A DNA stretch of 64,000 nucleotides from a virus. The stretch spans positions 1 through 64,000 of the IMG/VR virus record IMGVR_UViG_3300042356_000801. One strand, written 5' to 3'. A model generated the notes under the pieces. It searched no databases. It saw only the letters and a program-made list of their open reading frames with translations, and was not told the origin of the DNA. Positions 41,958 through 64,000 of this stretch are shown piece after piece. Numbering within the stretch: position 1 is the stretch's first letter; the number at the start of each line of letters is the position of its first letter. Made by a program: the position numbers and the translations under genes.

Positions 41958-42056
41958 TTTTAGTATTTGGTTTTAGTAAACAATGCGAAAAACCTGAATA
42001 CTTACCGTTTAGTGCAGTCTTTGTCGTTTATTATCGAAGAATACACAAGGAGCCAC

Positions 42057-45000: not shown

Positions 45001-48000
45001 AACAAGGAATACTTGAAGAAGACCACCCAAGAGTCAAGAAGCTCAGAAACCGTTTAACCGCCGACGACGAGTTTGAAAAAACATTTTCAATGCTTGCCGA
45101 GATGGATGCTGAAGCTGAAGCAGAAAGCAGAGCAGAAAGGCGTTCAACCCAGTTTACGGCTGTAGAAAACCCATTCGGACGTCTTTCCTCTGGTCAGAGA
45201 ACATGGATAGATGCCGCAGAGGATGAAGCAGGAGACGACCCTAGGGAGCTCGCTGATTTCTTACTTGCAAGAGGTGTTATCGACGAGGAAGACCACCCAA
45301 TAATCAAGGGGCTCAGAGATGGTCGTACAGCTGACGATGAACTCGAAAAAGCATACGAAATGCTTGCTGAGATGGATGCCGAAGACCAAGCAGAACACGC
45401 TGCACAGTTTAAGAACGCAGCCTCAGAAGTAAGCAGTCTGACCAAGCCAACAATGCCGGACCTTGATGGAATGGACGAAGACGAAGCAGGAGATGCGTTA
45501 CAACAGGCAAATGATGAGATATTAAGTTTTGCTGATGGAACAGAAAACATTGCGAGAGAATACCTTGGAGACGCAGAATACAACAAGAGGTTTGGTGGCG
45601 CAGTTCCATTAATCGAAGAGATGTCAAAAAACCATGACGGCGGCAATTACGAGCGTGAGATAGCTCTTGAAAACGCACTTGAGCGTGCTAATGGATTCAA
45701 CCTGTCAGTCGCCGGAGAGATGGAATTAGAAAGCAACAGATTCTCTTCTGGTATAGATTTTGACAAGAAAGGTGCATCAGGCCTCAGGGAGATGCGCCAT
45801 GTTGAGCGCAATCCACTCAGGATGGATTCATCTGCTGAAAAAGCAGAACGTGATGCATATGAAAAAGATGTTGCTGCCTTCATAAAGAACAATGGCTGGT
45901 TTGTTGAAGTACCGATGTACAACGGTGACCCAAAGTGGCAAAGTGAAGATTGGTATCGCGCAAGAGAGTTTGCTACAAACGTTGCAAAATTGCGTTTCGA
46001 GGACAACTACCAAAACGAAACTAATCAATTCATGCAGTTCTTTGATAAGCCAGGAAAGCCTTCAAAGAAAGACTTCTTCGCCAAGAAGGGGACCGTTGAT
46101 TACAAGTCTTGGTACATGGCTCATACCCCTCTATTGACAAGCGAAATAGACAGCGTTCTTAATTCTGACCTGTACTCTGACAATTACAAAGAGTCATACA
46201 TGAATGCTATTCGTTCATTCTTGTATGTAAACAGGCCTGAATTTGGTCCATACGGTGGAGATGACCCCGCTTACCAAGCATGGCTACAACAGTCGGGTCT
46301 TGGTTACGGTGGAAGATACAGCACGTCAGGTCCAAAATTTGACGAAATGGGCAGATTCTCTTCTGGTGCTAAGCGTGGAAGTAGAAAAGATAACTACATA
46401 AATTCTTACGAAAACCCAGAAGACTTGAAAGAAGCAATCTTTTCTGAGCTTATTTTTGCAGGAGACTATGAAGGAATGACTGCGGAAGACTTGGCCTACG
46501 CGCTAAATGTCAGGGCAGAAAGTGTTGAACCAATTCTTGAGCAAGTCAAAAAAGATGTAGGCGACGCACGGGAAGACTACGACCGCTACTTAGAGTCACA
46601 ACCAGAAATGACTGACGAAGACCTGCAGGCAATGGCGGATGACTATGCTCGCGCACAGACTGTAACCGACAAGTTTAACAACATGACTCCAGAAGAAGCA
46701 GCCGATTACGCCGCTTGGATGGACGAAGAAACCTGGAGAGACAGGGACCCAAGATTCTCCTCTGGTAGGGAACTTACCGACGAAGAAAAGCAAGAACTGG
46801 GGGCTCAATTTGCCAGAGCCCAAGACAGGCGAAAAGCTGAACTGGAAGAACGGGGGGCTCAATTTGCCAGAGCCCAAGATAGGCGGAAAGCAAAAGAAGA
46901 CCGCATCACTAAGTTCTACAGGGAGATGGCAGAGCAAAATGCAATGCTTTCAGAAATGACCCCAAGCGAACTCGCGGATTACGCCGAGCAATGGAACGAA
47001 AGCCATGCAGAAGATTCTCGTCTTTCCTCAGGTGGTATAAACTATTACGACTGGATGGTAGAAAATGGTGTTCCGCGTTCAGCACTAGACGGTGAAAGGT
47101 TCCGTGGAAGAGACGCTTACGGACACTCTTTCCATGACTACTATGCGGAAGATGCTTTTGCAAATATCGACGAAGCAGTCGTTGAAGCGCTTCTTTCTGA
47201 CAGAACACAACGAACATCTATTCAGGATTTAGCAAAAGAAGCAAGAGAACATGGGCTTCAACTGGCCACCAACCGCAGCATGCAGGAAGAGTTCTCCTGG
47301 GCTGAGGCAGTAAATCCAAAACCTGAGAGCTTGCGCGCGGAAGATTTGGTTCGTAGACCTGATGACTTAGGCTCAAACGCAAGACGCGTAGCTGAAGCAG
47401 TTGCTAACAACAGTAATGGCGCAAGAAGTGCTGCGTCTAGAGAAGACATTCTTCATTTTACCTACGATGGTAAACAGCGCTCTGTGTATCCAGAATCATT
47501 TGGGACAAGCAAAAAAGGCATTGCCTTCTTTAGAGCCTGGGACGAAACCGCAGACGATGGCAATGGTGCCTACAGAAGCTTTAATATCGACAAGATTGAG
47601 GGACTGGTTTCACACGCAATACCTCCATATGTTGAAATAGGAACAATGACCCCAGAGCCCAAGTGGAGCATTGCTGACTTCAGCATAGAAGACTGGGCAA
47701 AAATTAATGACCGGTTCTATTTTAGAAGTAGCGAAGTTGGTCGGGCGGCGTTTGATATTGAGACCGCTATTCAATGGGAGCTTGAAGGCACTGGAACAAG
47801 GGCTCCAGGTTCGATAATCGACACAGCCGAAAGAGAACTAAAGCGCCTCAAGCAAATTGCTTTCGACAAACACATCACCGAGATGGTGGAAAAGGGTGCT
47901 ACAAGTTCAAAATTCTCTCTTGACATTGAAAATGCAAAAAGATACGGTGTAAAGCCACTCAACAGAGGAAATAGACTGTCTTCTGGCGGTTCGGGCAGGT

Positions 48001-51000
48001 TCAATATTGCGGAAGCTCGTTCATTTGATGACATGTCAGACAGGGAACAGCTTGCAGTCTTCAACGGAATCAAGGACAGACTTTCAGAAAATAACCCAAG
48101 CATGGTTAGCGTCCTGGAAGACGGCGGACTCAACATCGATGGATATCTTGCAGATTTCCCTCAACTTCACCCAGACTTCTCTTCAGAAGAAAGCGGCGGA
48201 GAAAGGTTCTCTTCTGGTGGTTTTGCACCACCAAAGCCAAAAAGAGCAGCAAGAAAAGATGAAGAAGGCTTAATCGATGGCGCAAGAGTCATGCGAGGAA
48301 ATACTTTCATCGAAAGCGTTGTTGGTCAGTATGAGAGAAATCGTGGAAAACTAAGTGATGCGCAGTGGGCCAAATTGGCCGAGATTGTTGGAAGAGGTTC
48401 TAAACCAACATCAGCCGGTGCTCCAACCCCAAAAAGGCCAAGCAAGGGTCCAAGACTGGAAAAGTACTCTGGTAAGCCTCGCAAGATAATAGGCATAGAC
48501 GAAGTTGTACCATACGATTACCCTGAAGCCGAGTTTAAGCCAAACCCAGAACAGGCTGATGCGATTGACGCCATGATGACAGGCTCTGACGTAAAAGTTG
48601 GAGCTTTAGCAGCAACAGGTAAAACAACAACAGTAATAAGTTTTGCCAATCGTTTGGCCGCTCAAGACCCAAGCGCAAGAGTGCTTTATTTAGTTTTCAA
48701 CAGAGACGCCAAGAGCGATGCTGAAGCTCGCGGAATGGGTGACAATGTTTCCGTTATGACGATGGACGGTATTGCGTTTAAAGCCATGATAGGGGCTGGT
48801 GGTTCTCCAGGTCTTAGGCCTGGTCTAAAAACCAAACTGTATGAAGCCGGAAAAGCGTCCATGGATGACTCGGTTAGGTCGTACGTAGGCAAGGCAGCAT
48901 ATCTTGGAATCAAGGGAGCTTTTATACCGCGAGATGGTGATGCACCACTTGAATTAACTCCCACAGATATTTACAAAATTGTTGCTAAAGGCGTAAACGC
49001 TTACTCAATAAGTTCAGACGAAAAAATAGGACCACAGCATTTTACTGGGAAATTTAATGGACCTTTAGCAATTCCTGAAGACAGCCCAATAATGCCTAAC
49101 GTATTAAAATATGCCAACAAGATGTGGGAAGACCTGCAACAGGATAGGGACAACTTAAAAAAGCAAGGAATGCTTGGTCTTGAGTCTAACCATCTAACAA
49201 AGATGTGGGCACTGACTAAACCAGATGTTGCAAGTTTTGGTGGCACTGATGGCGTAAACGTAATCATGGTTGACGAAGCTCAGGATATTAACCCTGTGTT
49301 TGCAAAAATGATGAAAGATTCTAAGTCTGCACAAAAAATATACATTGGTGACACCAATCAGGCAATCAATGCTTGGCGTGGAGCTGATGGCTCAACCTTG
49401 GATGCAGTAGAAGCTGAATACGATATGCCGATAACCGAATCGTACAGATTCGGAGCGAAGATAGCAGGCATAGGCAACAGGTTCTTGACTTTGCTTGGGG
49501 TAAAAGAACGCATGACCGGAAAAAAGACAAGAGCAGGCAAAAACGGCTCTCGTGTTGATGTTCCAGGTGAAGTTGTTACCGAAATGAGCGTTTTAGACGC
49601 AACAATGATTCTTTGTCGCAGCAATGGTGGAGCCATAGCCGCAACCATGGAAGTAATTGAAGAGGGTGGCGGACAAAAGAAAGTTTACGGAAGCGCAAAT
49701 TTCAAAAAAGATTTACAAAACTTTATTGACAATATTGAGTGGATGCAGAATGCCGAAAAAGGCGAACCCTATTGGACAAATTCTCGCGGAGAGAGAATGA
49801 CAAGTAGGCCAGAATTCAGCGCGGACCTTGAAGGAATAACAACGTACGAAGAATTTAAAAAAGAAGTTGCTTCTGCGGACAATAACAGACTAAACATGCT
49901 CGATGGTTTATTGGAAAAGAATTCAATACCAGGACTACGTAATGCTTTAGACAATATTCTCACAAGAAAAGAAGACATAGAAAAGCTAGACCCTAACGAT
50001 TATGTAAAGATACAAACAGCACATACATCAAAAGGCCTTGAATCTGGAAAAGTGAAAATTTGGTCAGACTTCAGAAAGCCAAAATTTGACGAAGAACTCG
50101 AAGAATGGGTTATGCCAAACGAGCAGGAACTTAGGTTGTCTTATGTTGCTGTAACTAGAGCAGAAGAAGAAATTGACCTCGGTTCACTCGATTGGGTTTT
50201 TAACCACACAACAGATGCAGACGAGAAGCCAAACGCTCGTTCCGCCAGGTTGTCTTCTGGAAGAAGCATTGCAAGAAGACAGGGCAAGGGCAAGAACAGT
50301 CGTGCTCGTGGACAGCGTCCATGGAGCGATGAAGACCGTCAAAACTTTGCTGATGGCAATAGGCTCCGTGCTCAAACAATTCCAGGCAAGCGCCGTGAGG
50401 GACCTGCAGCAGCAGAATTCTCTTCTGGTGAAAGACTTTCTGCTGGTGGTTCTGGATTCTATCTCGACAACCCACCAGACGACGACTCCGATAAGTGGAT
50501 AGACATGGCAAGCGACGATTACAGGTCTATATCTGATTCATGGAGGGATTTCCCAGAAGAAACAGATGAATTCCTTTCCGACTTTTGGAGCTCTCATGAA
50601 ACATGGGGCCAAAACCCTCCATCGCCATGGGAATTTACTGCAGAAAATCTTTCAGAAATAACAGACATTTTTGAAAACACGCAAAGACCTTCAGCATACG
50701 AGCCATACTATAAGCAATTACGCGACTTAGAAGGCCTTCCAAAAGAAGACATAATTAAAGCGTTAAAACAAATACGCGAAGACGATGATGACACGCAAAT
50801 GTTTGTGGAATTCTTTAACAAAGATGTTTTTGAAGTTGCCGAAGAAAAAGAAGCACCACTTGGTAAGTATGTCCTTGAGGCATTGCAAGAATGGAACAAC
50901 CTCCCCAAATGGCTAGAGAATAGCCAAACGGACGACGGTTACACTCGCCCGTACAGGTTCTATTCTGGAGCCCGTTTTGCGCCAGATGGCGAGTCGGGTT

Positions 51001-54000
51001 CACGAATCCAAAGAAGACTTTCTTCTGGAGAATACTTTGGACCACCTCCAACCGGCAGCGGCAAGTACAACAGCAGAGAACAGGTCCGCGCATCGTTGGA
51101 TGCGTTCCACAGTGACCCGGGTACCGCAGTAATCCCGTCCGACATGCTGGGCATACTTGGTTCTGTTCCAAAGGGTAAGGAATCTCATATTCTTAATGCA
51201 GAAGTTGCAAAAAAGATTATTGCTAATCCAGATATGGAATATTCGTCAAACAACGGCTGGCCCGTTGACGCAGGCAGGCTTCTTGACTTTATTGAAGTAA
51301 ACGAAGAAGATGCCATCAGAACTCTTCGCGAAATTGGAGACGCTCAACGTATTTCTTCAATTCTTGGCATACCAGAAAAAGATGCGCAAGACATGCTTGA
51401 CGGCAAGCCCGTATACATCATGGCGGGAACGGCTGCAGACATGCTTGACGACCTCAAGGAAGGAAAACATTACCTAGAGGCTGGCCAGCTTGGTAATGAG
51501 GACGTAACAAGAATCTGGGGATTTGATGGTGCTCCAAAGTGGGTTCGCCATAGCGATATCGCTACCCCGGAATATGACCTTGACGAACAAGGCAGGGTTA
51601 ACTGGTCTAAAGAAAAATGGGACAGTCTTTCAAGAGAACAATTTGATGCTGAACTAGCAAGAGGCAAAAACCCACCAGAGCCTGTTTACGAATCTCCAGT
51701 AGAGCGTTTTAACTCGGAAGCAATTTTTGACAACCCTAAGTGGAATGCTCGTAGTGGCTCGTTCAGGAACCCAGTAGTGGATTCAGAATTTGCAGTAGCA
51801 CCACGAGCCGCAAGAAGGTCAGAACAGCTAGAGCCAACGAGAGCACCATCTCAGGCAAGAGTTGGCGAAAAAACCGTAATGGCTGACAAGGAATTTGCAG
51901 CAAAGTGGATTAAGCGTGGACATAGCGTTACTGCTTCAAACATGATGGACATTCTTGGGGTTGAAAGAGATTCTAAAAATCCAGAACCTTCAACTGAAGA
52001 GCTGAACAGGCTTATTGAAGCAATGAATGAAGTTAGTGCAAAAGTAGGACTGACTCCTTTGTCGGTCACAAGGGCACCAACAAAAAGTGACCTTAAAAAA
52101 TTGGGAATTTCCGACGAGTTTATGCATGCTCTTGTTGCTTCTGGAAAGTTTAAGAACATGAAAGAAGCAATGGCAAGTCTTGGTGATTCAAGATTTGATT
52201 CATTGGCTGCCGAATATGACTCAAGAATGCTTTCCGATGCCGCTTTGTTGAGAATAAAAGACAAAATGAACAAAGAAGGCGTTCCCAATTCAGTAGCTGT
52301 TCTGATTGAGGCAATTACTGCTTCTTTTGGCCGCAAGCAAGCATGGGAAAAGCGAATCAAAGAAGGTCGCGTATCCATCAAGGGTGACATGAAGGAAGAC
52401 GGAATGATTAGCGATGCTAAACTTTCTGAACTGCTTGGGCGAGTGAACGATGCTCTCGCAAGGTCTGGATACCCAGAAATAAGTCAAGACGAACTTTTCC
52501 CCAAGGACGAAACTGGCGGATATGTTGACAACCTTAGCTCTGCTGTTCCCGGTGCGCCAAGAATGTCTTCAGGTCAAAGGTTTGTAGCAAGAACATCTTC
52601 AAGCAGAAGAGCTGACGCTATGAACGATGCTGCTGCTCGTAGAGAAGGCAATACTTCTCGACTTTCAAGCGGAGAAAGCCTTCCATTCAAAGACGAAAAC
52701 GGGAAGCTTGTTCCAAGCAATATTAGTCAAGCCGCAAAAGATGCAACACCCGCTAATCCTGGATTCGACAGGGAGCCGCTGATTCAAAGAAAGACTCCAC
52801 ATAGAAATTTAGAAGATGTTGAAAAAGCGCTCAAGACAAGACAAGCAATTTCCGAACTTTTCACAATGAATCGCAAAAACACTCAAGGATTTAGCGTGTA
52901 CGACTACCAAGACGAACTAGTAAAAGCTGGATTCCCACTGGAAGAAATTGAAGAAATGATTGATTCGTTTGTTCGACTAGATTCCTACATTGATGATGTA
53001 GAAAGACATTTCGAAATAGCAAGAGAAAAACTGGATGAAACACTTGAAGAGATAGAAGACAATCTTTCCAAGATTGAAAGACTCAAGGGAGAAAGAGCAG
53101 ACGCAATCAAGAAGTGGGGGAACACCGAGGACAACTACTGGGTGCAAGCAATAGATGACAAAATTGCTGCTGCAATGATTAAAATCGATAAGGCATACCA
53201 AGGCGGAATCGGTGGAGAAGACGGCCGACTCGGAACACTTCATCCACAGCTTGAAGAAATGATGAGCGCGATGCCGGGCTGGACCGAAGGTCCATACGGA
53301 ATGGGTGACGACATAAATCGACGACTTCTTAAAGTTGAAGCTTCTATCAGCAAGGCTGGCGGAAAAAAGAAGGCTGTTCCAGTAACTGGAATTGACTTTG
53401 GAGTACCAGAAGGCACAAGACTTTCTTCAGGAAAAGCAGAAGAGTACTACCAAAACCTCACAAGCCATCTCATCAACATGATTGAAAAGTCACAAAAAGA
53501 TGGTGGCAAGTGGGAAGCACCGTGGCACAAGGCCGGCAATATGCCGAGAAACGCTTCTACAAAGAATATGTACTCAGGCGGAAACCTCTTTGCTCTCATG
53601 CTTGCAGCAGAAGAAAAGGGCTACGCAACTCCTCATTGGGGCGGATTCCAGCAATGGAAGAAGCTCGGCGGAAGCGTAAAGAAGGGTGAAAAAGCCACTG
53701 CGATTCTTATGCCTAAAACGATGTTTGGAGATGAAATTGACCCAGATACAGGCAAGAAGGTTCGCAAGTCTAAGGGTATCTATTTCACAACCGCACACGT
53801 GTTCAACCTCGACCAGGTTGAGGGTATTGACCGCGAAGAATTCTTGAAGCTTCCAACCGATGCTCTTACTCCAGAGCAAAGAGTCGGAAAACTTGAGGAC
53901 GCAATCAAGGAAATTGGTGCAACAATCAACACGGGAGACGGAAGCAGGGCTTACTACTCTCCTCGTGAAGACCATGTTGTTATGCCTCCATTTGAACTCT

Positions 54001-54575
54001 TCAAGACACCAGAGGGCTATTATGGAACTCTTGCTCACGAGCTTGTCCACTGGACCGGCCATTCGTCAAGGCTTGACAGAAAAAACATGAACCAGTTTGG
54101 CTCACCAGAGTATGCAAGAGAAGAACTCATTGCAGAATTTGGTTCAGCATTCTTGCTTGCAATGTTCGGGCTTTCTGCGGAACCAAGAGAAGACCACGCC
54201 CACTACTTGGCCAACTGGCTTCAGGTTCTTCGTGATGAGCCAAACGCCTTGCAAGAGGCTTCTACAAAGGCTCAAGAAGCATCAAAGATGCTCATCACAA
54301 AGATGAAGATAGTCCTGGAAGAAATGGGCGAAATAGCATCGGATGCAGAGTCGGCAGCTGAAGAAGCAGTCGATGTAAAGAGTTTGCAAGTTTTCAATGA
54401 CCCACTATACGAATTCAAAGATGCGTCTATCGAGTGGAGTAAAGACCCACTTCATGCACCGTTCTTGATTAAGTCTCTGGATGATGAAAAGCATTCATCG
54501 GGTCTTGTTAATAGAAGTTGGGAAAGAATTGCAGAAACAGCAATTTTCCTTGAACGTCTGAGCAGAAATAAATAA
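42057..54575 (+). CDS. giant (~4172 aa) prohead protease-polyvalent fusion protein: HK97-type protease, WYL x2, SF1 helicase, ArdC/zincin and many unknown modules separated by R[LFM]SSG
   Basis: AAGGAG RBS before ATG 42057; protease motifs GHNWNDPIG, WSIGY, YEVSPV; helicase motifs ATGKTT, DEAQD, GD.NQ.I..WRGA, TAH.SKGLE, YVAVTRA; ArdC motifs WEAPW, YSGGN...L, HELVH, YAREELIAE. Confidence 0.9.
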   Translation: MPSSKKNSDIQYKAAPQGMVNLDEAEGIVECFVAGIGNKDSVGDVCAPGAFGKSLIRRKPRVVWGHNWNDPIGKVLDMYEVQPSDPRLPNKMKAAGIGGLYARVQFNLKSEKGREAFANVAFFGEEQEWSIGYKTINAKFDPQMQANILYEVELYEVSPVLHGANQLTGTISIKSEDQSSTVLVNEQPSIDGLNINELSSVLDALKTIASTTDEKCGPGMPMGMPAQMPMVMPSGGPGMPSVSKPTQPTAPRESVKPEVPSMPENPMLVAIRRELVDRTGSNIIVRSVIENIVVFDRITTDGISSTYKLPFNYANNEFMFGKPEKINTQPTPESSIPTMPGMPQQFGGFDTGKSLISFDDFSWVGFNQQIPAQQVDISTLNNVISNLEKIIEEKSTYIIPVDINNAFEVKQAIDPILDYYRVDATVTEDGIVVKSLDNEFLDAMDIATKGVLRSIGNMVGRAVDRPNIGKNRRDRNPNLASRGRGIGSRGAVVRLADGTMWDPKTAPDRNNNGIVGEGLTDGRGMSLSQPDPTPSGPNSIDAPKTPKAPKAPKKATRLSSGGDDSSRARDLAKQREMDKARGASATNPVGKEAVEQAKKLERERAAARQSETRLSSGRVIMSDGQMEISFDEEDGDGIYDATRDGFRIIRNERGSGGGRRFPESTATYGGSGLSEAEKKEILDVVKDSSNPLVQKILKGSFPSSLSDKQWAVLKREFEKNKKKTPSGYISNVRSGGTVAPGAKLDGGIAYLEPDHANDKDYENLRDAIQTAMRSNQMLRFDYSGKNREVIPVKIEKNNKTGKWNLTAQDDTGARKLFSLDKITPSSAERLSSGEWTKTDDGIEMDAPDIDGGYLIQGNSKDGFVVTRFADARRNGGQNANEYEHDKVFTSSSAAKKWAERNYKLISEEIGKEDVEIRKADAERSADFADMTPEDAADYAAWMDEETWRDRDPRFSSGEGYWVDAAEKEAGNDPKKLADFLIEQGILEEDHPRVKKLRNRLTADDEFEKTFSMLAEMDAEAEAESRAERRSTQFTAVENPFGRLSSGQRTWIDAAEDEAGDDPRELADFLLARGVIDEEDHPIIKGLRDGRTADDELEKAYEMLAEMDAEDQAEHAAQFKNAASEVSSLTKPTMPDLDGMDEDEAGDALQQANDEILSFADGTENIAREYLGDAEYNKRFGGAVPLIEEMSKNHDGGNYEREIALENALERANGFNLSVAGEMELESNRFSSGIDFDKKGASGLREMRHVERNPLRMDSSAEKAERDAYEKDVAAFIKNNGWFVEVPMYNGDPKWQSEDWYRAREFATNVAKLRFEDNYQNETNQFMQFFDKPGKPSKKDFFAKKGTVDYKSWYMAHTPLLTSEIDSVLNSDLYSDNYKESYMNAIRSFLYVNRPEFGPYGGDDPAYQAWLQQSGLGYGGRYSTSGPKFDEMGRFSSGAKRGSRKDNYINSYENPEDLKEAIFSELIFAGDYEGMTAEDLAYALNVRAESVEPILEQVKKDVGDAREDYDRYLESQPEMTDEDLQAMADDYARAQTVTDKFNNMTPEEAADYAAWMDEETWRDRDPRFSSGRELTDEEKQELGAQFARAQDRRKAELEERGAQFARAQDRRKAKEDRITKFYREMAEQNAMLSEMTPSELADYAEQWNESHAEDSRLSSGGINYYDWMVENGVPRSALDGERFRGRDAYGHSFHDYYAEDAFANIDEAVVEALLSDRTQRTSIQDLAKEAREHGLQLATNRSMQEEFSWAEAVNPKPESLRAEDLVRRPDDLGSNARRVAEAVANNSNGARSAASREDILHFTYDGKQRSVYPESFGTSKKGIAFFRAWDETADDGNGAYRSFNIDKIEGLVSHAIPPYVEIGTMTPEPKWSIADFSIEDWAKINDRFYFRSSEVGRAAFDIETAIQWELEGTGTRAPGSIIDTAERELKRLKQIAFDKHITEMVEKGATSSKFSLDIENAKRYGVKPLNRGNRLSSGGSGRFNIAEARSFDDMSDREQLAVFNGIKDRLSENNPSMVSVLEDGGLNIDGYLADFPQLHPDFSSEESGGERFSSGGFAPPKPKRAARKDEEGLIDGARVMRGNTFIESVVGQYERNRGKLSDAQWAKLAEIVGRGSKPTSAGAPTPKRPSKGPRLEKYSGKPRKIIGIDEVVPYDYPEAEFKPNPEQADAIDAMMTGSDVKVGALAATGKTTTVISFANRLAAQDPSARVLYLVFNRDAKSDAEARGMGDNVSVMTMDGIAFKAMIGAGGSPGLRPGLKTKLYEAGKASMDDSVRSYVGKAAYLGIKGAFIPRDGDAPLELTPTDIYKIVAKGVNAYSISSDEKIGPQHFTGKFNGPLAIPEDSPIMPNVLKYANKMWEDLQQDRDNLKKQGMLGLESNHLTKMWALTKPDVASFGGTDGVNVIMVDEAQDINPVFAKMMKDSKSAQKIYIGDTNQAINAWRGADGSTLDAVEAEYDMPITESYRFGAKIAGIGNRFLTLLGVKERMTGKKTRAGKNGSRVDVPGEVVTEMSVLDATMILCRSNGGAIAATMEVIEEGGGQKKVYGSANFKKDLQNFIDNIEWMQNAEKGEPYWTNSRGERMTSRPEFSADLEGITTYEEFKKEVASADNNRLNMLDGLLEKNSIPGLRNALDNILTRKEDIEKLDPNDYVKIQTAHTSKGLESGKVKIWSDFRKPKFDEELEEWVMPNEQELRLSYVAVTRAEEEIDLGSLDWVFNHTTDADEKPNARSARLSSGRSIARRQGKGKNSRARGQRPWSDEDRQNFADGNRLRAQTIPGKRREGPAAAEFSSGERLSAGGSGFYLDNPPDDDSDKWIDMASDDYRSISDSWRDFPEETDEFLSDFWSSHETWGQNPPSPWEFTAENLSEITDIFENTQRPSAYEPYYKQLRDLEGLPKEDIIKALKQIREDDDDTQMFVEFFNKDVFEVAEEKEAPLGKYVLEALQEWNNLPKWLENSQTDDGYTRPYRFYSGARFAPDGESGSRIQRRLSSGEYFGPPPTGSGKYNSREQVRASLDAFHSDPGTAVIPSDMLGILGSVPKGKESHILNAEVAKKIIANPDMEYSSNNGWPVDAGRLLDFIEVNEEDAIRTLREIGDAQRISSILGIPEKDAQDMLDGKPVYIMAGTAADMLDDLKEGKHYLEAGQLGNEDVTRIWGFDGAPKWVRHSDIATPEYDLDEQGRVNWSKEKWDSLSREQFDAELARGKNPPEPVYESPVERFNSEAIFDNPKWNARSGSFRNPVVDSEFAVAPRAARRSEQLEPTRAPSQARVGEKTVMADKEFAAKWIKRGHSVTASNMMDILGVERDSKNPEPSTEELNRLIEAMNEVSAKVGLTPLSVTRAPTKSDLKKLGISDEFMHALVASGKFKNMKEAMASLGDSRFDSLAAEYDSRMLSDAALLRIKDKMNKEGVPNSVAVLIEAITASFGRKQAWEKRIKEGRVSIKGDMKEDGMISDAKLSELLGRVNDALARSGYPEISQDELFPKDETGGYVDNLSSAVPGAPRMSSGQRFVARTSSSRRADAMNDAAARREGNTSRLSSGESLPFKDENGKLVPSNISQAAKDATPANPGFDREPLIQRKTPHRNLEDVEKALKTRQAISELFTMNRKNTQGFSVYDYQDELVKAGFPLEEIEEMIDSFVRLDSYIDDVERHFEIAREKLDETLEEIEDNLSKIERLKGERADAIKKWGNTEDNYWVQAIDDKIAAAMIKIDKAYQGGIGGEDGRLGTLHPQLEEMMSAMPGWTEGPYGMGDDINRRLLKVEASISKAGGKKKAVPVTGIDFGVPEGTRLSSGKAEEYYQNLTSHLINMIEKSQKDGGKWEAPWHKAGNMPRNASTKNMYSGGNLFALMLAAEEKGYATPHWGGFQQWKKLGGSVKKGEKATAILMPKTMFGDEIDPDTGKKVRKSKGIYFTTAHVFNLDQVEGIDREEFLKLPTDALTPEQRVGKLEDAIKEIGATINTGDGSRAYYSPREDHVVMPPFELFKTPEGYYGTLAHELVHWTGHSSRLDRKNMNQFGSPEYAREELIAEFGSAFLLAMFGLSAEPREDHAHYLANWLQVLRDEPNALQEASTKAQEASKMLITKMKIVLEEMGEIASDAESAAEEAVDVKSLQVFNDPLYEFKDASIEWSKDPLHAPFLIKSLDDEKHSSGLVNRSWERIAETAIFLERLSRNK
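44842..46766 (+). repeat. dispersed direct repeat (44842-44927 and 46681-46766) ending at the RFSSG motif
   Basis: MTPE(D/E)AADYAAWMDEETWRDRDPRFSSG; 53 nt identical at 44871-44923 and 46710-46762. Confidence 0.92.
46794..46895 (+). repeat. 54-nt-period tandem duplication encoding GAQFARAQDRRKA twice
   Basis: GGGGCTCAATTTGCCAGAGCCCAAGA(C/T)AGGCG occurs twice. Confidence 0.85.
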
Positions 54576-56356: not shown

Positions 56357-59300
56357 ATGACGGGTACGTTTAAGACTAAAACAAGAGTCTATACATCACC
56401 TGAATTTTTTACCCCGATAACGGGCCGAAAGAGTTTTACAGACGCCGCTATCGACTTTAGACGCGGGCTTATAGAGAACTCTTCCATGGCCGTTCTTAAT
56501 GCTGACCTTTCTGTAAAGGCCGCAATGGGGGCGGGTCTTTCTGCTTCTGCTTCATCCATAGGGCAATCGTCTCAAGGAACATCTCCAAATACTGACGGTA
56601 AAAAGCGTGTCAACAAAGGCGGCGTTCCGGGGATGGTTGAGGACGAGCGTGGATTTAGGTACATGCCCGATGCAACATGGGGTCCAGACAAAGTTCTCAA
56701 ACTGTTTCCTTCTCCAGAAGAAAGACAGTCTTCTAATAAAGTTCCAAACTTTGGTTTTGTAGACAGAGAACCAATTTTTACTCCTCAACAGTTTGTTGAA
56801 CAGATGGAGAAAAAACCCAAAATCAGGATGTCTAAGTACAAAATAAATACACGTACTGGCGAACCCATAGAAGACACTGAAGTTGAGTTTGACCGAATGA
56901 GGTTTGGTAAAACTTTTAAAGTAAACCCAGACATCTCTAACGAAATAGAAGAAGACATATCTGACGAAACATCAGGAGAAATGCAAGAGAAGAGTCTTGG
57001 CTCGACCCTGAAGCAAAGAATGCCAGGTGCAACTATTGCTGGTAGAGCAGCCGCTCGCTTTGGTGTGATTATGGATGAGCTTGGGAAGATGCGTTGTCCT
57101 CCTGGGACTCCAGCGGCAAACCAATTCACTGACATGACAGGTTCTAACTGTTTTGGAATAACTCCAGGAAATATGATTTCTGAGGCAATCAACCTTGCGC
57201 AAAGACTAATTCCATCCGATGATTCAAGACGTACTGATGGTTTTACCAGAGGGGTAGCCAACTTCTTCTTCGACATGGAGAATGGCATATTTGGCAACAA
57301 CGTCTGGTATCACCCAGACGGAACCAGAATGAAGCATGGTGAATGGCGTAAGTTCCGTGAAGCTAACGGTGTTGCAAGAAACGAACGCTGGATGGTCAAC
57401 GGCGTTGAGCGTGTTTATGCAGAGATTGACGCTCAAGAGGCGCGCTTGACCGACCTTTATCAAAAGCTTGACATTGATACAAGAGACAGCAGAAAAGCAA
57501 CAAACGAACATCTATACGAGGCGTTTGAAAAACTAGAACAATCAGGCGTTATAACGGCAAAGATTGAAGGCAGGCCTACTGAGGCTGATGTTGAAGCAAT
57601 GATGACTTCACGCCTAAAAAATACCGACGCACACTGGAACACTCGCTCGAATGAAGAAAAAGCACTGTTTCTCAAAATTGAAATTCAAAGATATAGAGAG
57701 CTTGAGCGTGCGCACCTTGAGGCTTTCCTTGATGAGGTAATCAAAAATCCTGAACACATGAAGTCTATCCGGGCAGTAAGAATGCATCCAACCGGCAAAG
57801 ACAGAGCTTCGTATGGCATAGACGGCATAGACAGAAGAACCAATATGCCTTACGGTTCAATCAATATAGACATACCTAAATCAATGGAATTTGAAGACTC
57901 TCTTCTTCCAGCTCTCTCCCCTGATGAAAGACTCAGAATATGGGCAGAAGGAGGGATGTCTGAGGCACTCAGGTCTTCCACTGTAAAAGATTTCCTTGTT
58001 AACTCAAACGCCTATGCCGGTCAGATGATAGCAATGGTCGACGGCGGTCGTGGTCTTGGCCGCCATGATATGAAGCACGAGATAGCTCACTCGATTCAGG
58101 CTGCAGCCATTTTTGAACACATGAAGAGAGAACTTGATGCTAGGGGTTCTCTTGTTATGAACACCAAGAATGGACCCAAGACCATTACAAGTGTTGCCGA
58201 ACTCGATAACGACATGCTTGCTGCATTAATGATAAATGAAAACTATATGGGGATTGACCTCGATTCATTAAAAAGCCTCCGTTCTAGAGGGGACATTGTT
58301 GCGTTGTTGGGGGGTAAATATATTGATGACGTTGACAATCAATATGATGGCAAAAGGCGTGCTGCTGAAATAGGTGCAGAAATATGGGCACTTCGAAGCG
58401 CAGGTTTAATATTCGGAGATGACGTAGACGCGGCTCTTGAGTACATGGACGATGTTGCTTCTGGAAAAATAACAGCAGACAGAACAGTTGCAGACAGCGT
58501 TCTTACTAGAAGAGTTTACGATGACCATTTAGACGGTACCAGGAGAGTTCGTGAAGCTAGAGAAGCCCGCGAAGCTGCTGAAGAAGCAGCAAGGCTGGCC
58601 GAAAGTGCAGATACTCCAGATGAAGAATTTTTTGATGCTGATACCAGGGCTGCAGAAGACAGGATGTCTGATGCCAGGGAGGCATATGCTCTAGAAAAAC
58701 GTGCAGAAGTAAAAACCACAAAAGAACAAGCCAAGACAATGACAGAAGAAGAGATGATTGATTTTCTCTCTTATTCAACAGAAGGTTCTGACGCTCTTAC
58801 GGAAATGCTTGATGCAGCCGGAGAGGCCGGTGAAGAGCCGGACTGGATGAGCGTCATGGATAGGGACACTCTTGATGCGCAGTCAAAATCCGTAATAGAT
58901 GAGTGGGTAAAGCGCTTTACAGTTAGAAGAAGTCCTGAAGCCTTAGAAAAACTATTAAATATGGTTGACGACAAGCGTGAATCAAGAGGAACACTTTCTC
59001 CTGAAAAAATAGAAGAACGTCGTCATCGTGAATACCTAGAGGGTGCTACGGAACGAGCAAAGGACTTGGACTTAGAGGACCTCGTTGAGTTCTCTTCAAA
59101 CTGGGAAGAACTTGCTTCATCCGAAGGGATTGAGGCTCCAGAGCGCACTCGTAGAAAAGAAGCACGCGACATGTACAGGGATGAGTACATCAAGAGAAGA
59201 ACAGAAGGCCCTGATTCTGTTTCTAGAGAAGATGCCCGCAAAGAGTTTAATGCAAAATTAAAAGAACTGCGCAAGCCAAAAACTACTGCTGAACGCAAAA

Positions 59301-62300
59301 AACGAGACAGGGTTAAGCCAAAGAAGTTCAATAGCCACAAAGGCAAGGATGGGGCACACACTTTTGCCACACAAGAAAGAGCTCGCCTACTGGAAGGCGC
59401 AACAACAGCAGAAAAGATTGCTTTTGTTGAAATGGGCAGTGGTGAAACCGATGTAATAAACATGATGGCCGGCCATTCTGAAGGAATGGCTTCTGCACGA
59501 GCAATACAAAGAAGAAATACTCGCCTTAAAAAAAATGGCATCCTGCCTGATGGCCTCAATCAACACGAGGCTTCAGTAGAGGAACAAGTAGAAAACTTCT
59601 ATATTCCACTTCTTGAGCTGATGGATAAATCTTCACTATCTCAGATGGTGGAAATGCACCTAGACGGTAATGAGGATTCTGGACTATATATAGAAGACCT
59701 GCTTAGCGGTAATGCCCCAGAATTTACTATGGGTATAGGCACCGGAACCTTAGTAACAAACAAAACAGATTTTTCTGACGGCAAGAAGATAGTAATCCGC
59801 GTGCCAGCAGGAAGCAGAGCTTTATTACCTGACTGGTCATATCGTTCCGACTCCGACGACGGAGAACAGAAGATAATGATTCCTCCTTCAAAGCTTCACC
59901 TTGTTGAGATTCGCGATGATGGAACTGTTGTTCTTGAAGTCGGCGAACAGATGGGAACAGAAGCAACGTTAAAAACTGCAATAGAAGAAATAGGTCCTGG
60001 AAACGGTGGAGCAGGAGATGTTGCCTATAGGACAGGTCTTCAGAAAAAACTAAACAAAGTTGTCGACAAAAGAATCACAGAGCGCCGCCGACAGGGGATG
60101 TTCGACCCCGATAGTAAGTCTCCAATTGAGGAAGAAAGATTCAGCACAACAGCAGACACTGCTGCAACTGGTGCTGGGTTTATGCCGGATAGGCCTCCTT
60201 CTGCTCCAAGTCGTGCCACCACCGATAGGGGCGACATAGGAACTGGCGACTACGATGACGATTTAAGCCCAGCTGAGCGCAGATTCCAAAGGGAAGAAAG
60301 AAACAGAAGAAGAGGAAACCCAAGACTTTCTTCTGGAGCTGATACTGAAAAACTTGTTTCAATATCTGGTCCGCAAGATGCTCGCAGGGTTATTGATAGC
60401 AACCTGCCAGCATCAGTTAGAACTGAAAAAGAAGCATATACCATTTTGACTGAACTTGCAAAAATGGCTAGGGAAGCCAAGGCAAAAGGGAAAGACGCTC
60501 CTAATTACGATTTTTGCAAAGTTTCTATTCCGGGAACAAACCTATTTTGCGGTGACTCTAAGGGAATTCCTAGAAAAAAAATGCCTCAGTTTAGTGGGAA
60601 GCCAACTCCTGGTTCACCAGCAGATTCAAGACCCAAAGATAAAGATGGCGGGGTCGACGGCACGCAAGACTTTATTAAACACATGGAAGGACTGGGAGTA
60701 AAAGTCGAAGAAAAAGAAGTTCTTGCGTCAACGTTAAGAGCATCCCAGAATGAACTAGTTGGAGAAAAAGTCGCAGGGATGATGACCAATGAGAACTTTG
60801 ACCCTGCAGGTGAACCAATTTTTGTTAGCCGAGATGGTTATGTTATTGACGGTCATCATAGATGGGCCGCCCAAGTTGGTCGAGACCTTGAAGACGGAAA
60901 CCTTGGTGACCTTCCATTAAACGTAAAAGTTGTGGACATGGACATCTTGGAAGTTCTTGAAGAAGCAAACAAATTTGCTCAAGAGTTTGGTATTGCTCCC
61001 AAAACAGCAGGAAACGACGCGGCCCAAAACAGGTTATCTTCTGGTGCCAAATGGGGGCAGATGCCTTCAAACAATCAACAACTTGCTCGCCTTCTTGAGC
61101 CATCAAATAATGATGGCTTCAACGAAATATACGGCCCTCCACAGACACGCCAAGAAAGAATCACCCAGATGGCTGAGATGCAGTCAGAAGTGATGACTTC
61201 TCTGCGTGAAATGTTTGACAACGTTCCAGGAGCAGGAGATTCTCTTGGACTTGACCTGAACCACATAGACCCATACCTTGTTGACTTCATTAAGAATTCT
61301 TCAGATGAAGAAATTTATGAACTTATTTCTCAATCCGCAAAAAACCTTCATGAGAGTTTTGACGCACGACCACGAGTGCGCATGAGGCAAGACGAGCTTG
61401 ATGGGTTTGCCGCTAGCGGCAGGTACGGAAGAGAAAAATCTTTTAATAACGAGCGTTTCTCTTCTGGTCTTGTAAAAAAGGGTATAAAAGCAAGGGCCAA
61501 AGAACGTGCCATAGAAATAATTGCCGACAGAATTGGCATGGATGAAGACTCACGCGAAGTGGCAGAGATGGTGTTCAATACGGCCTCTGCACTCAAGTAC
61601 GGCCCAGAAGCAGCACTTACTCGCTTGGCTATAGACCTCGGAAGAAGAGGAAGCAGAGAACTTGCAGAAAAAACCGTAGAAGAACTTGTTAAGCGAGGAA
61701 AAATAACCGACGAACAAGCAAAATCTATTCTTTCAAAACTGGACAAGGTTGCACCAGAAGGACTTCCAGAACCATTAAAGCGCGGTGTTGGAAGAGCAGC
61801 AAGAGCAACAGCAGATGCTATTGATACTCCAGAGAACAGAGAGCGCTTAGAAAATGCCCGTGAAGCAGTCGGAGAAGCCGCTGGAAGAGCGAGAGAAGCG
61901 GTTGGTGAAGGTGCCCGCAATATTGCTGAGCGTGGCCGTGAGAGGCTTAGGAAGCTCCGTGAAAGAGACGATGCCGGAAGTCTACCTTCTGCACCGGAAG
62001 ATGTACCGTTTGGTGATTTTGACCCAGCAGATGCTCCCGTAGGAAGACTTGCTAGCGGAAGAAGATTGGATAGAAGAGTTTCTGGTTCGGATAATGGTCG
62101 CGAACGCATTATGGAAGGCGCAAACGTAACTCGCACCCGCCTAAGTAGTGGTGAGACGCCAAAGATAGACAAGCCGAAGAAGCCAAGCAGGCCAAGAGAC
62201 CCCGACAACGGACCAATGACTGGAAAGTTCATTGACATATTCCGTGGCGTTAAGTCATATCAAGAAATGCTTGACAGATATAACGAGCAAGAAGTTATTT

Positions 62301-64000
62301 TCTTTGACTACGAGACAACAGGTTTTAGCCCTACGGACGATAGGCCTGTTCAGATTGGTGCAGTAAAAATGAAGGGCGGGAAAGTCGTTGAAAGATTCAA
62401 TGTTTTTGTTAACCCCGAAAAAGAACTTAGCGACTGGTCAAAGGAAAATCTACTTAATGCTGACGGTAAACCTCTAACCAACGACTGGTTATCAGGTCAA
62501 TCTTCAGTCAACGAAGGCCACCAGCAGCTTATTGACTTCTTTGGCCCTGATGCCCTCCTTGGTGGACAGTACACGCCTTTTGACCTTGGCTTCCTTGAAG
62601 AGTCACTAAAGAACGCAGGAATTGAGTGGACCCCTGCTGGAGTCATAGACAGCAAGGCCCTTGCTGATGAACTTCTTCCAAGATGGACAGCAGATGGCGG
62701 AGATGGTCCTTTTGCTCTTAACCCAGATGGCACAAAGTACGCAACAAATAGCCTTGGACCGCTTTCTGATTATCTTGAAGTCGAACTGACAGCATGGCAT
62801 ACAGCAGACGCAGACTCTGAAGCGTCAGCAATGATTGTCCAAAAGATACTTGAGCGTGCAGCAGAAAGAGAAGACACTCCAAAACATCTTCTTGATGTTG
62901 ACAACCTTCCATCTGTTGTTGCTGAACGCAGGGCTAGACACAAGCTCGACATGGACAAGTACTTTGCCGACCTAAAGCAGTACAAGGTTGACAATGAAGC
63001 ATACGAAGCTTCTCAAACCGGAGAAAGACTTTCTTCGGGAGCAACCATGGATGACAAACTAGGGAAGACTGTCGGTATTGACGAACTTCTTGCCGACCCA
63101 ACAATGGCTGAAGAATTACGCAAAAGAAGCGCGGACATAAAAGCACTTTCTGACAGGGAAAGAGCACAAAGATTTACCGACCCTAACGACCCAGACTCTA
63201 TCTATGTAATTCACTTTGGAGCGAGCCAATTAGAAGGCGGCCAAATAGACCCTGCTCGTTCGCGAGGGCAGGTGGGTTCAAACGTCCCTGCGGCAGGAAA
63301 TACACGTTTGGTAAATGACCAGACAGCCAGATATATGGTTGGATTACGCAATACCGCAAGACGAGACCTGTCTATTCTGGAAGAAATAAAACGTCAAATG
63401 GAGACTGATGGAGTTGTTGACTTTGAGGCGATAGCAAGAACAGACCCGAAAGACTCCATGAGGGCGGGAAGAGCAAAAATATTGCTTGGTGTTAAACGTA
63501 CTGACCGTGACTACGAGCGTTCAACGTTCACGCCTCCTTACTGGAACCCTGAAAATTTTGACGCTCAAATCGCAAGCGAAAACAGAACCCTATCTAGTCT
63601 TGACAAGGTTGCCGACCAGTTAATTGCAGACGACTACCAGTACACGAGTACATACAGGGCTTCTGGATTACGAGATTTACGGAGCTCTTACGGAGGGAGG
63701 TACGCAGAAGGCGGCTCTACAGAATGGGGCGACAACTCGCCGCGCTCGTCAACTACCGGTATTCACATATTAAAAGTAAAAGTAGGCGACAACGCGATTG
63801 AGCAAAATAGCGTTGGAGAAACTCACCTTGTTGGTAAACACACCCCAGTTGCTTCACTTGTCGTGAGGGCAGATGATTATGATGATAATCCTGCTAATGA
63901 CACATGGACCGGATGGATGGATATGGCGATTGAGGCCGACATCAAGAAAGGGTCAGGTGAGAGGCTTTCTTCCGGTGCAACAGGACGTTCCCCAGGACTA
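56357..64000 (+). CDS. second giant polyvalent protein (at least 2548 aa, runs off the window): zincin, degenerate ART, ParB/Srx, DEDDh exonuclease and unknown modules separated by R[LF]SSG
   Basis: ATG 56357 after AAGGA; manual translation found no in-frame stop to 64000; HEIAH at 58076, IDGHHRWAA near 60845, FFDYETTG...PFDLGFL...WHTADAD at 62300-62815. Confidence 0.88.
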   Translation, partial: MTGTFKTKTRVYTSPEFFTPITGRKSFTDAAIDFRRGLIENSSMAVLNADLSVKAAMGAGLSASASSIGQSSQGTSPNTDGKKRVNKGGVPGMVEDERGFRYMPDATWGPDKVLKLFPSPEERQSSNKVPNFGFVDREPIFTPQQFVEQMEKKPKIRMSKYKINTRTGEPIEDTEVEFDRMRFGKTFKVNPDISNEIEEDISDETSGEMQEKSLGSTLKQRMPGATIAGRAAARFGVIMDELGKMRCPPGTPAANQFTDMTGSNCFGITPGNMISEAINLAQRLIPSDDSRRTDGFTRGVANFFFDMENGIFGNNVWYHPDGTRMKHGEWRKFREANGVARNERWMVNGVERVYAEIDAQEARLTDLYQKLDIDTRDSRKATNEHLYEAFEKLEQSGVITAKIEGRPTEADVEAMMTSRLKNTDAHWNTRSNEEKALFLKIEIQRYRELERAHLEAFLDEVIKNPEHMKSIRAVRMHPTGKDRASYGIDGIDRRTNMPYGSINIDIPKSMEFEDSLLPALSPDERLRIWAEGGMSEALRSSTVKDFLVNSNAYAGQMIAMVDGGRGLGRHDMKHEIAHSIQAAAIFEHMKRELDARGSLVMNTKNGPKTITSVAELDNDMLAALMINENYMGIDLDSLKSLRSRGDIVALLGGKYIDDVDNQYDGKRRAAEIGAEIWALRSAGLIFGDDVDAALEYMDDVASGKITADRTVADSVLTRRVYDDHLDGTRRVREAREAREAAEEAARLAESADTPDEEFFDADTRAAEDRMSDAREAYALEKRAEVKTTKEQAKTMTEEEMIDFLSYSTEGSDALTEMLDAAGEAGEEPDWMSVMDRDTLDAQSKSVIDEWVKRFTVRRSPEALEKLLNMVDDKRESRGTLSPEKIEERRHREYLEGATERAKDLDLEDLVEFSSNWEELASSEGIEAPERTRRKEARDMYRDEYIKRRTEGPDSVSREDARKEFNAKLKELRKPKTTAERKKRDRVKPKKFNSHKGKDGAHTFATQERARLLEGATTAEKIAFVEMGSGETDVINMMAGHSEGMASARAIQRRNTRLKKNGILPDGLNQHEASVEEQVENFYIPLLELMDKSSLSQMVEMHLDGNEDSGLYIEDLLSGNAPEFTMGIGTGTLVTNKTDFSDGKKIVIRVPAGSRALLPDWSYRSDSDDGEQKIMIPPSKLHLVEIRDDGTVVLEVGEQMGTEATLKTAIEEIGPGNGGAGDVAYRTGLQKKLNKVVDKRITERRRQGMFDPDSKSPIEEERFSTTADTAATGAGFMPDRPPSAPSRATTDRGDIGTGDYDDDLSPAERRFQREERNRRRGNPRLSSGADTEKLVSISGPQDARRVIDSNLPASVRTEKEAYTILTELAKMAREAKAKGKDAPNYDFCKVSIPGTNLFCGDSKGIPRKKMPQFSGKPTPGSPADSRPKDKDGGVDGTQDFIKHMEGLGVKVEEKEVLASTLRASQNELVGEKVAGMMTNENFDPAGEPIFVSRDGYVIDGHHRWAAQVGRDLEDGNLGDLPLNVKVVDMDILEVLEEANKFAQEFGIAPKTAGNDAAQNRLSSGAKWGQMPSNNQQLARLLEPSNNDGFNEIYGPPQTRQERITQMAEMQSEVMTSLREMFDNVPGAGDSLGLDLNHIDPYLVDFIKNSSDEEIYELISQSAKNLHESFDARPRVRMRQDELDGFAASGRYGREKSFNNERFSSGLVKKGIKARAKERAIEIIADRIGMDEDSREVAEMVFNTASALKYGPEAALTRLAIDLGRRGSRELAEKTVEELVKRGKITDEQAKSILSKLDKVAPEGLPEPLKRGVGRAARATADAIDTPENRERLENAREAVGEAAGRAREAVGEGARNIAERGRERLRKLRERDDAGSLPSAPEDVPFGDFDPADAPVGRLASGRRLDRRVSGSDNGRERIMEGANVTRTRLSSGETPKIDKPKKPSRPRDPDNGPMTGKFIDIFRGVKSYQEMLDRYNEQEVIFFDYETTGFSPTDDRPVQIGAVKMKGGKVVERFNVFVNPEKELSDWSKENLLNADGKPLTNDWLSGQSSVNEGHQQLIDFFGPDALLGGQYTPFDLGFLEESLKNAGIEWTPAGVIDSKALADELLPRWTADGGDGPFALNPDGTKYATNSLGPLSDYLEVELTAWHTADADSEASAMIVQKILERAAEREDTPKHLLDVDNLPSVVAERRARHKLDMDKYFADLKQYKVDNEAYEASQTGERLSSGATMDDKLGKTVGIDELLADPTMAEELRKRSADIKALSDRERAQRFTDPNDPDSIYVIHFGASQLEGGQIDPARSRGQVGSNVPAAGNTRLVNDQTARYMVGLRNTARRDLSILEEIKRQMETDGVVDFEAIARTDPKDSMRAGRAKILLGVKRTDRDYERSTFTPPYWNPENFDAQIASENRTLSSLDKVADQLIADDYQYTSTYRASGLRDLRSSYGGRYAEGGSTEWGDNSPRSSTTGIHILKVKVGDNAIEQNSVGETHLVGKHTPVASLVVRADDYDDNPANDTWTGWMDMAIEADIKKGSGERLSSGATGRSPGL

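Follow-up and report, generated by a model that had tools for sequence, protein, structure and literature searches.

The window analyzed here is a stretch of 64,000 nucleotides corresponding to positions 1-64000 of the linear 91169-bp IMG/VR virus record IMGVR_UViG_3300042356_000801, on which contig and window coordinates are identical and whose completeness (for the whole 91,169-bp record) is estimated at 57% by CheckV. It ends within a giant open reading frame (ORF), hereafter ORF B (Table 1), which starts on the + strand with an ATG at 56357 and is still open at its 3′ end at position 64000 (2548 codons translated without any stop). Both the ORF list and the translation agree with the original prediction, made from the sequence of the window, of an uninterrupted frame running to the window end. 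The extension of the contig that it proposed as a check leads to a stop at 65110 and to a full product of 2917 amino acids (aa).

The contigs of four lake-water runs (2020-2025) cover positions 56001-65500 collinearly, with zero insertions or deletions and zero joints: one contig of 24.7 kb runs across the entire stretch without a single difference, and the remaining ones show 1-3 single-nucleotide polymorphisms. These runs are all flagged as possible sources of this DNA, and their independence is therefore not certain. At least 24 lake-water metagenome runs contain 99-100% of the sampled words of ORF B (no RNA run is among the sequencing runs listed for these words), and full-length relatives showing 63-99% identity are present in many other assemblies. 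An assembly chimera or an uncorrected frameshift that would have fused separate genes, i.e. the artefacts that could have overturned the original prediction, was thus rejected and retains practically no probability, since neither an in-frame stop nor any break of collinearity was found and full-length homologues exist elsewhere. ORF B is a genuine ORF and its punctuation by a repeated junction motif, described below, is real.

Exact copies of this motif, R[LFM]SSG, start in ORF B at aa 1323, 1559, 1700, 1928, 2224, 2536 and 2679. As had been predicted, residues 1-1322 are devoid of it and the modules that follow measure 236, 141, 228, 296 and 312 aa; counting further motifs beyond the window adds a seventh junction and two modules of 143 and 234 aa. 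The seven R[LF]SSG compare to a mean of 0.011 and a maximum of 1 in 20,000 shuffles of the protein, so that a chance origin was rejected. Every SSG tripeptide of ORF B falls inside such a motif, and the RLASG variant found within module 3 (aa 1897, positions 62045-62059) corresponds to RLSSG in relatives. A six-frame scan of the contig for R[LFM]SSG found 16 copies in an upstream giant gene encoding an S78 prohead protease fused to a polyprotein (ORF A), the seven copies of ORF B, two copies in the tape measure protein and a single off-frame copy at 54424, which lies in a frame full of stops and was taken as chance. The 25 motif sites are encoded by varying synonymous codons, with five codons in use for Arg, five for Leu and all six for Ser, TCN/AGY switches included. 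Therefore, selection acts on the peptide and a DNA-level signal was rejected. Around the motif, L, V, F and I are scarce and K, N, P, G and T are over-represented, and junction 1 falls in the tail of a structural model (aa 1000-1327) that has a low predicted local distance difference test score (pLDDT); the junction motifs sit in hydrophilic linkers. Furthermore, close relatives have a common core order, with whole cassettes gained or lost exactly between motifs; this comparison places the swapping of modules among relatives precisely at the motif.

The motif also follows a code that differs between lineages. While [LF]SSG is retained in relatives whose N-terminal unit shows as little as 26% identity, the preceding residue varies by lineage and is, within each genome, identical in the A-like and B-like giants, for example: (i) always R in the phage carrying ORF B, (ii) G in L031, L043 and L054, (iii) S or A in L028, L030, L046 and L071, and (iv) K-rich in L018, L050 and L068. 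The site at aa ~561 of the tape measure protein is positionally conserved and its preceding residue follows the polyprotein type of the genome (GGRLSSG here, PGGLSSG in the G-type, PSLASG in the S-type, DKLSSG and KRFSSG in the K-type). One lineage uses G[FL]ASRG instead (~15 copies) and another one ISGRM[GA], a copy of which is also found after the protease domain of a short S78 protein. Compared across lineages, the junction variants all fit hydrophobic-[S/A]-[S/G]-[G/R]. Taken together, the selection at the protein level, the swap points and the covariation in three unlinked genes are best explained if the motif is a recognition site for a co-evolving protein, for which a protease would be the most economical candidate; R[LF]SSG is probably a protease cutting signal.

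Alternatively, the motif could serve as a conserved flexible linker or as a tag for docking or modification, or it could have arisen as a by-product when modules recombined, and ORF B could work uncut. Modules do recombine at the motif, its cleavage is a prediction from comparison, and the passages on the N4 virion RNA polymerase in a survey of polyvalent proteins describe this member of the group as packaged uncut (PMC5512222). However, a plain linker needs no invariant, lineage-specific five-residue peptide that covaries in three unlinked genes, the synonymous codon variation argues against a recombination signal carried by the DNA, and in ORF A the motif follows the S78 domain, where self-release is expected. 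We therefore consider an uncut ORF B improbable.

The N-terminal unit of ORF B (147 kDa), which defines the family, has no match in Pfam or PHROGs (0 Pfam families over aa 1-1327) and retrieves nothing from the PDB with phmmer. The peptide that the original prediction had highlighted near the N-terminus, RCPPGTPAANQFTDMTGSNC, is located at residues 246-265 and corresponds to the element RCPxG-x6-FTD-x5-C; the alignments also contain an invariant K.RCPPGTPAANQFTD..GSNCFG block in this unit. A second copy of the element with identical spacing is found at contig positions 67853-67912, in another protein of the head operon, 666 aa long, and the pair is present in 58 of 80 related loci. In a BLASTP comparison of ORF B and the 666-aa protein, the likeness was confined to the 20 aa of the element, and a wider homology of the two proteins was thus rejected. 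This element may be a docking or targeting knuckle.

Downstream of this element, the AlphaFold model of aa 200-760 (561 residues, partly helical, pLDDT 72) includes a HEIAH sequence at aa 574-578 (58076-58090) followed by E671 and E675. H574, E575, H578, E671 and E675 are invariant in 28-34 aligned sequences, and HExxH and the downstream Glu are kept throughout the 34 aligned lineages, irrespective of the junction type. Foldseek found no PDB match to this model at E <= 0.001. With VIA-align, the top match is the catalytic domain of anthrax lethal factor (1yqy_A, Z 9.6, root mean square deviation 5.3 over 200 aa), followed by the putative metal hydrolase 3dl1 (Z 6.1) and PPEP-3 (Z 5.9). With moderate confidence, this model suggests that aa 316-705 adopt a zincin endopeptidase fold resembling that of lethal factor. 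The model of aa 1000-1327 (pLDDT 79) matches 73 PDB chains at E <= 0.001 with Foldseek, the top one being C3larvin (5.9e-6, prob 1.0, target template modelling score 0.57); C3bot, Certhrax and iota toxin Ia are further matches, all pointing to an ADP-ribosyltransferase (ART) fold. In the family alignment, the canonical Arg, S-T-S and E-x-E of ARTs are not conserved; only P1176, D1188 and G1189 are invariant, P1177 and Q1198 being nearly so, and the position of the catalytic Glu is occupied by E-Q-K in ORF B and by Q-x-variable in relatives. Since the canonical catalytic residues are not conserved, this predicted fold is probably not a classical transferase.

The modules that follow the first junction are unrelated to each other. 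The exonuclease of module 4 (PF00929, RNase_T, 2.6e-15, 57.8 bits for a cut-off of 24; phrog_192, 9.8e-25) is the sole Pfam match of ORF B over threshold, in line with the prediction that ORF B lacks a prohead protease of its own. Module 1, a cassette present or absent among relatives, matches phrog_2859 (1.1e-18) and, weakly, the ParB-like phrog_1033 (0.011); module 6 has only weak matches (ParBc_2, 0.1; SbnI, 0.34). The assignment of both as putative ParB-like nuclease modules is weakly supported. Modules 2, 3 and 5 have no match in Pfam and PHROGs, and module 5 no usable match in the ESM Atlas. Module 7, located at the C-terminus, matches the PDB chain 8vx3_A ('SaSAS', E 8.3e-15 over 156 aa) and phrog_7625 (6.8e-26), its Pfam score for PF04607 (18.6 bits) being under the cut-off of 27; its homologues include the C-terminal ends of MuF-type head proteins encoded by pneumococcal prophages. 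The small acidic ORF that follows it has no family match and, by its position, is a candidate immunity gene. The next ORF, of 350 aa, is homologous to a C-terminal module that is fused to the giant in more than 45 distant relatives. In its closest matches, a junction motif ends no more than ~10-20 residues from the start of the homology; in other relatives, the nearest junction is far upstream or absent. In the phage carrying ORF B, this ORF is split from the giant by the toxin module, the stop codon and the 82-aa ORF. From this comparison, it appears that, in the clade of ORF B, the toxin module and the small ORF split an ancestral C-terminal module into a separate gene.

On the basis of these sequence comparisons, we consider it rather probable that ORF B is a modular polyprotein loaded into the procapsid with ORF A and cut at its junctions by a phage protease. 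As a late gene of the head-gene block, ORF B would yield a chain that is loaded into the procapsid together with the protease-fused ORF A polyprotein. Cleavage at R-[L/F]-S-S-G by a phage-encoded protease would then generate separate proteins, and these would enter the next host along with the DNA. The original prediction had proposed a processed cargo precursor with RLSSG-delimited modules: the motif covariation, the module swapping and the protein-level selection strengthen it, and the cargo-polyprotein reading of ORF B is well supported by comparison, whereas cleavage, packaging, delivery and the identity of the cutter are what we infer. If the junctions are cut, one gene would deliver eight proteins and the two giants ~25, with a fixed stoichiometry and one targeting unit, and recombination at a five-residue code would suffice to acquire new cargo. 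This would provide abundant freshwater phages with a compact and evolvable delivery of anti-defence enzymes and toxins, and would offer a testable link of capsid maturation proteases, or of a new zincin, with cargo diversification.

Several points weigh against this reading. The cleavage and encapsidation of ORF B are predictions from sequence comparison. Covarying junctions are also found in the tape measure protein, which is not part of the prohead, the place where S78 proteases normally act; its motif is therefore not explained by a prohead-confined protease. The L, F or M found at a fixed position of the junction would also suit the S1′ pocket of a zincin. Finally, the N-terminal helical region of the major capsid protein is followed, in 35 of 36 relatives, by a conserved [Q/H]-L-[S/T]-S-[R/H/S]-E-I-K-S-I-G sequence (QLSSREIKSIG in the phage of ORF B), the sole exception, AIPTRQLESIG (A-I-P-T-R), belonging to the lineage with FASR junctions; in the ISGRMG lineage, the capsid protein was not found on the short contigs available. 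The residue preceding L-S-S in this protein (Q/H) does not covary with the lineage type, and L-S-S-R lies ~60 residues upstream of the start of the Pfam capsid domain. It may therefore not be the boundary of a delta domain, and the capsid site may be unrelated to the junctions or read differently.

The behaviour of the tape measure and capsid proteins could also be accounted for if the junction code marked ejected proteins rather than the contents of the capsid: both giants and the tape measure protein would pass the tail as long chains and would be cut in the new cell by a co-delivered protease. By analogy with tailed phages, ORF A, ORF B and the tape measure protein are all expected to leave the virion, the capsid protein that does not covary is expected to stay behind, and a post-injection autoprocessing of polyvalent proteins has been proposed in passages of Iyer et al. 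2017 (PMC5512222). Processing after ejection is thus a serious alternative, although we regard it as unlikely: the junction shared by the S78 domain of ORF A would have to be accounted for separately, and T4, phiKZ and SPN3US process their cargo inside the prohead.

Who would read the junctions of the polyprotein? The original prediction, according to which ORF B would be processed in trans or by its own zincin, gained from the invariant HExxH and the lethal-factor-like fold as regards the existence of the zincin, but its two candidate cutters both stand. Every genome examined carries both the S78 protease and the zincin and, therefore, co-occurrence cannot decide between them. Processing in trans by the S78 prohead protease of ORF A is slightly favoured, as a tentative choice. 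This protease is fused to ORF A, whose first junction (aa 587) follows the protease region, where self-release is expected, and the capsid sequences, L-S-S-R in general and I-P-T-R in the lineage with FASR junctions, could speak for it as well. The cut made by assemblin-fold proteases falls two residues downstream of a hydrophobic one (T4, L/I-x-E; herpesviruses, V/L-x-A↓S), and a cut at L-S-S↓G would, by analogy, fit this rule.

It is nearly as likely, although we would not call it probable, that the junctions are read by the lethal-factor-like zincin of ORF B itself, its degenerate ART fold serving in substrate recognition; the cut could then be made in the cytoplasm or the capsid, or once the proteins have been ejected. 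The zincin lies in the only motif-free part of ORF B, its HExxH and downstream Glu are invariant with any junction type, and its match to lethal factor stands above the next rows (Z 9.6 compared to 6.1), although this score is moderate for a partly helical model of 561 residues. This fold is that of a sequence-specific endopeptidase and adjoins an ART fold without conserved catalytic residues; in lethal factor, likewise, the zincin is accompanied by an inactive VIP2-like domain, which contributes to the substrate groove. Zincins classically prefer a hydrophobic P1′ residue, which the conserved L/F/M would provide, and the covariation extends to both giants and the tape measure protein but not to the capsid protein. 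However, lethal-factor-like zincins are typically effectors directed against host proteins, and the one of ORF B may simply be cargo. Furthermore, if the cut preceded L or F, every module would start with Leu or Phe, residues that act as N-degrons in bacteria, and the presence of both proteases in every genome examined favours neither. Other readers, or no cleavage, account for what remains. A broader and somewhat doubtful proposal is a strategy similar to that of RNA viruses, in which a zincin with a dead ART as substrate reader would read a lineage-specific code marking all ejected proteins (the two cargo giants and the tape measure protein), with a cut possibly occurring after delivery; with such a zincin-read code, cassettes for anti-defence functions and toxins could be freely exchanged at the junctions.

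Table 1. Features of ORF B and of its surroundings (window coordinates, or contig coordinates where indicated)
Feature	Position	Strand	Basis
ORF B	56357..64000 in the window, to 65110 on the contig	+	ORF list, translation, four runs without indels
N-terminal unit, aa 1-1327, ends in the first RLSSG	56357..60337	+	94 homologous clusters; 225 representatives
RCPxG-x6-FTD-x5-C element, aa 246-265	57092..57151	+	invariant alignment columns
Putative zincin metallopeptidase fold, ~aa 316-705	57302..58471	+	predicted structure, VIA-align
Charged helical low-complexity linker, ~aa 706-999	58472..59353	+	sequence; long terminal helix in model
Predicted ADP-ribosyltransferase fold, C3/VIP2-like, ~aa 1075-1215	59579..60001	+	model, Foldseek
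Junction 1, RLSSG, aa 1323-1327	60323-60337	+	exact motif
Module 1, 236 aa, ParB/DdrB-like nuclease candidate (DGHHR), ends in junction 2	60338..61045	+	PHROG
Module 2, 141 aa, family-wide conserved, ends in junction 3 (RFSSG)	61046..61468	+	alignment of relatives
Module 3, 228 aa, helical, family-wide conserved, ends in junction 4	61469..62152	+	alignment of relatives
Module 4, 296 aa, DEDDh 3′-5′ exonuclease, ends in junction 5	62153..63040	+	Pfam, PHROG
Module 5, 312 aa, ends in junction 6	63041..63976	+	motif spacing
Junction 6	63962-63976	+	exact motif
Module 6, 143 aa, ParB/Srx-like (DGHNR), weak	63977..64405 on the contig, mostly beyond the window	+	Pfam
Junction 7	contig 64391-64405	+	exact motif, beyond the window
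Module 7, 234 aa, small alarmone synthetase-like toxin	contig 64406-65110	+	PDB, PHROG
82-aa acidic ORF	contig 65113-65361	+	starts 2 nt after module 7
350-aa ORF, detached C-terminal module	contig 65321-66373		homology to fused module
666-aa protein with second RCPxG element	contig 67490-69490		identical element spacing
Major capsid protein	contig 71087-72457		PF05065, E 3.2e-42
Tape measure protein, 1709 aa, RLSSG at aa 38 and 561	18999..24128	-	motif scan
Large terminase subunit (TerL)	38322-39638	-	gene annotation
Portal	39885-41957		gene annotation
ORF A, S78 prohead protease fused to 4202-aa polyprotein, 16 R[LFM]SSG junctions	41967..54575	+	
558-aa gene between the giants	54663-56339		almost every related locus has a ~1.7-kb counterpart in this position

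ORF B is located between the portal and protease genes and the gene of the major capsid protein, which lies downstream and outside the window, where the original prediction had expected it. Several unassigned ORFs, including that of the 666-aa protein, separate the 350-aa ORF from the capsid gene. ORF A encodes an N-terminal Peptidase_S78 domain, followed by UvrD-like helicase, weak WYL, ArdC-N and MPTase-PolyVal domains; it is listed from a TTG start, but an ATG ~30 codons downstream (MPSSKK...) may be its true start. The product of the 558-aa gene has no assignment in Pfam or PHROGs (PepSY only at E 0.14). The strand opposite to ORF B carries tail sheath, tube and chaperone genes and the tape measure gene, whose product has a C-terminal M15-like peptidase motif. 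Since it encodes a tail sheath and a tube, this phage is a myovirus. A whiB gene (contig 78943-79158, 47.4 bits) scores above the Pfam cut-off; whiB is used in the literature as a marker of actinobacterial phages (PMC6802176). Along with the 24 runs containing ORF B, which are all lake-water metagenomes, this suggests that low-GC (guanine plus cytosine) freshwater Actinobacteria are the hosts. The phage also carries a gene related to phosphoadenosine phosphosulfate (PAPS) reductases (30154-31293 on the - strand, phrog_2302, 5.4e-75) and, directly after the capsid gene, an Asp/Asn beta-hydroxylase-like gene (contig 72510-73067, PF05118, 1.3e-16).

The first 1322 residues of ORF B retrieve 94 clusters, all metagenomic, of proteins of 1800-3800 aa, and, when 1.84 billion representatives were searched with a profile of aa 200-760, 225 clusters at 50% identity were recovered, the strongest matches being mostly giant proteins. 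In IMG/VR, 183 loci are related to ORF B. Two complete genomes of relatives measure 158.7 kb (with terminal repeats) and 170 kb; the family is one of ~160-170-kb lake-water myoviruses. A tblastn search of ORF B against 50,697 records of cultured phages matched only the exonuclease and toxin modules and none of the N-terminal unit. Across the IMG/VR loci examined, the A-like giant, a ~1.7-kb gene and the B-like giant stand in this order, and the capsid gene comes after the B-like giant in the 36 distinct loci where it was found. In L051, L077, L078 and L082, the S78 protein is short (785-976 aa), without long polyprotein fusion, and the B-like giant retains RCPxG and HExxH, its junctions being ISGRM[GA] and not LSSG.

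Among known systems, ORF B most resembles the polyvalent proteins. The passages devoted to them in one survey describe giant multi-domain proteins, encoded in virion gene neighbourhoods with portal and terminase genes and predicted to be packaged and injected, that combine zincin, ART fold, ParB-like nuclease, helicase, ArdC and toxin domains; a peptidase embedded in the chain is suggested to process these proteins, and an assemblin-like peptidase is placed at C-termini (PMC5512222). Like them, ORF B appears to gather unrelated domains in one chain (RNase_T, small alarmone synthetase-like, ParB-like, zincin, ART) and is flanked by TerL, portal, S78 protease, capsid and tail genes. ORF B does not match the Pfam models MPTase-PolyVal, ART-PolyVal and LPD at E up to 0.5, unlike ORF A, which matches MPTase-PolyVal and ArdcN. 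The passages of the survey on related terms describe no repeated junction peptide (PMC5512222), whereas the system of ORF B has a code common to two giants and the tape measure protein that differs by lineage.

ORF B shares with MuF polymorphic toxins a terminal alarmone synthetase-like module followed by a small candidate immunity gene. However, its carrier is a different unit of 1327 aa, in which no Phage_Mu_F (MuF) domain was detected by Pfam or PHROG over aa 1-1327, and it has several cargo modules instead of one. Anthrax lethal factor associates, as ORF B seems to do, a zincin with an ART-like fold devoid of catalytic residues, but ORF B has the reverse domain order and no sequence-profile match, and it belongs to a phage of environmental Actinobacteria; this parallel should be seen as an analogy and not as membership.

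T4-type and phiKZ-type prohead proteases also cut short motifs (L/I-x-E and S/A/G-x-E, respectively). To our knowledge, T4, phiKZ and SPN3US have separate cargo genes, each with its own targeting sequence or propeptide, whereas up to 17 and eight unrelated modules are strung here into two chains. The motif of ORF B is furthermore based on Ser/Gly and not on Glu, the associated protease is of the S78 (HK97) type and a tail protein also carries the motif. In the passages concerned with the Salmonella phage SPN3US, the prohead protease is described as cleaving head proteins during assembly and the head as carrying packaged ejection proteins (PMC10052503, PMC7411985). In searches of the literature on phage polyproteins, prohead proteases and cargo, we found no description of phage polyproteins with coded junctions. 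Overall, from its sequence, ORF B would fit among polyvalent or capsid-cargo proteins, to which it would add a junction code.

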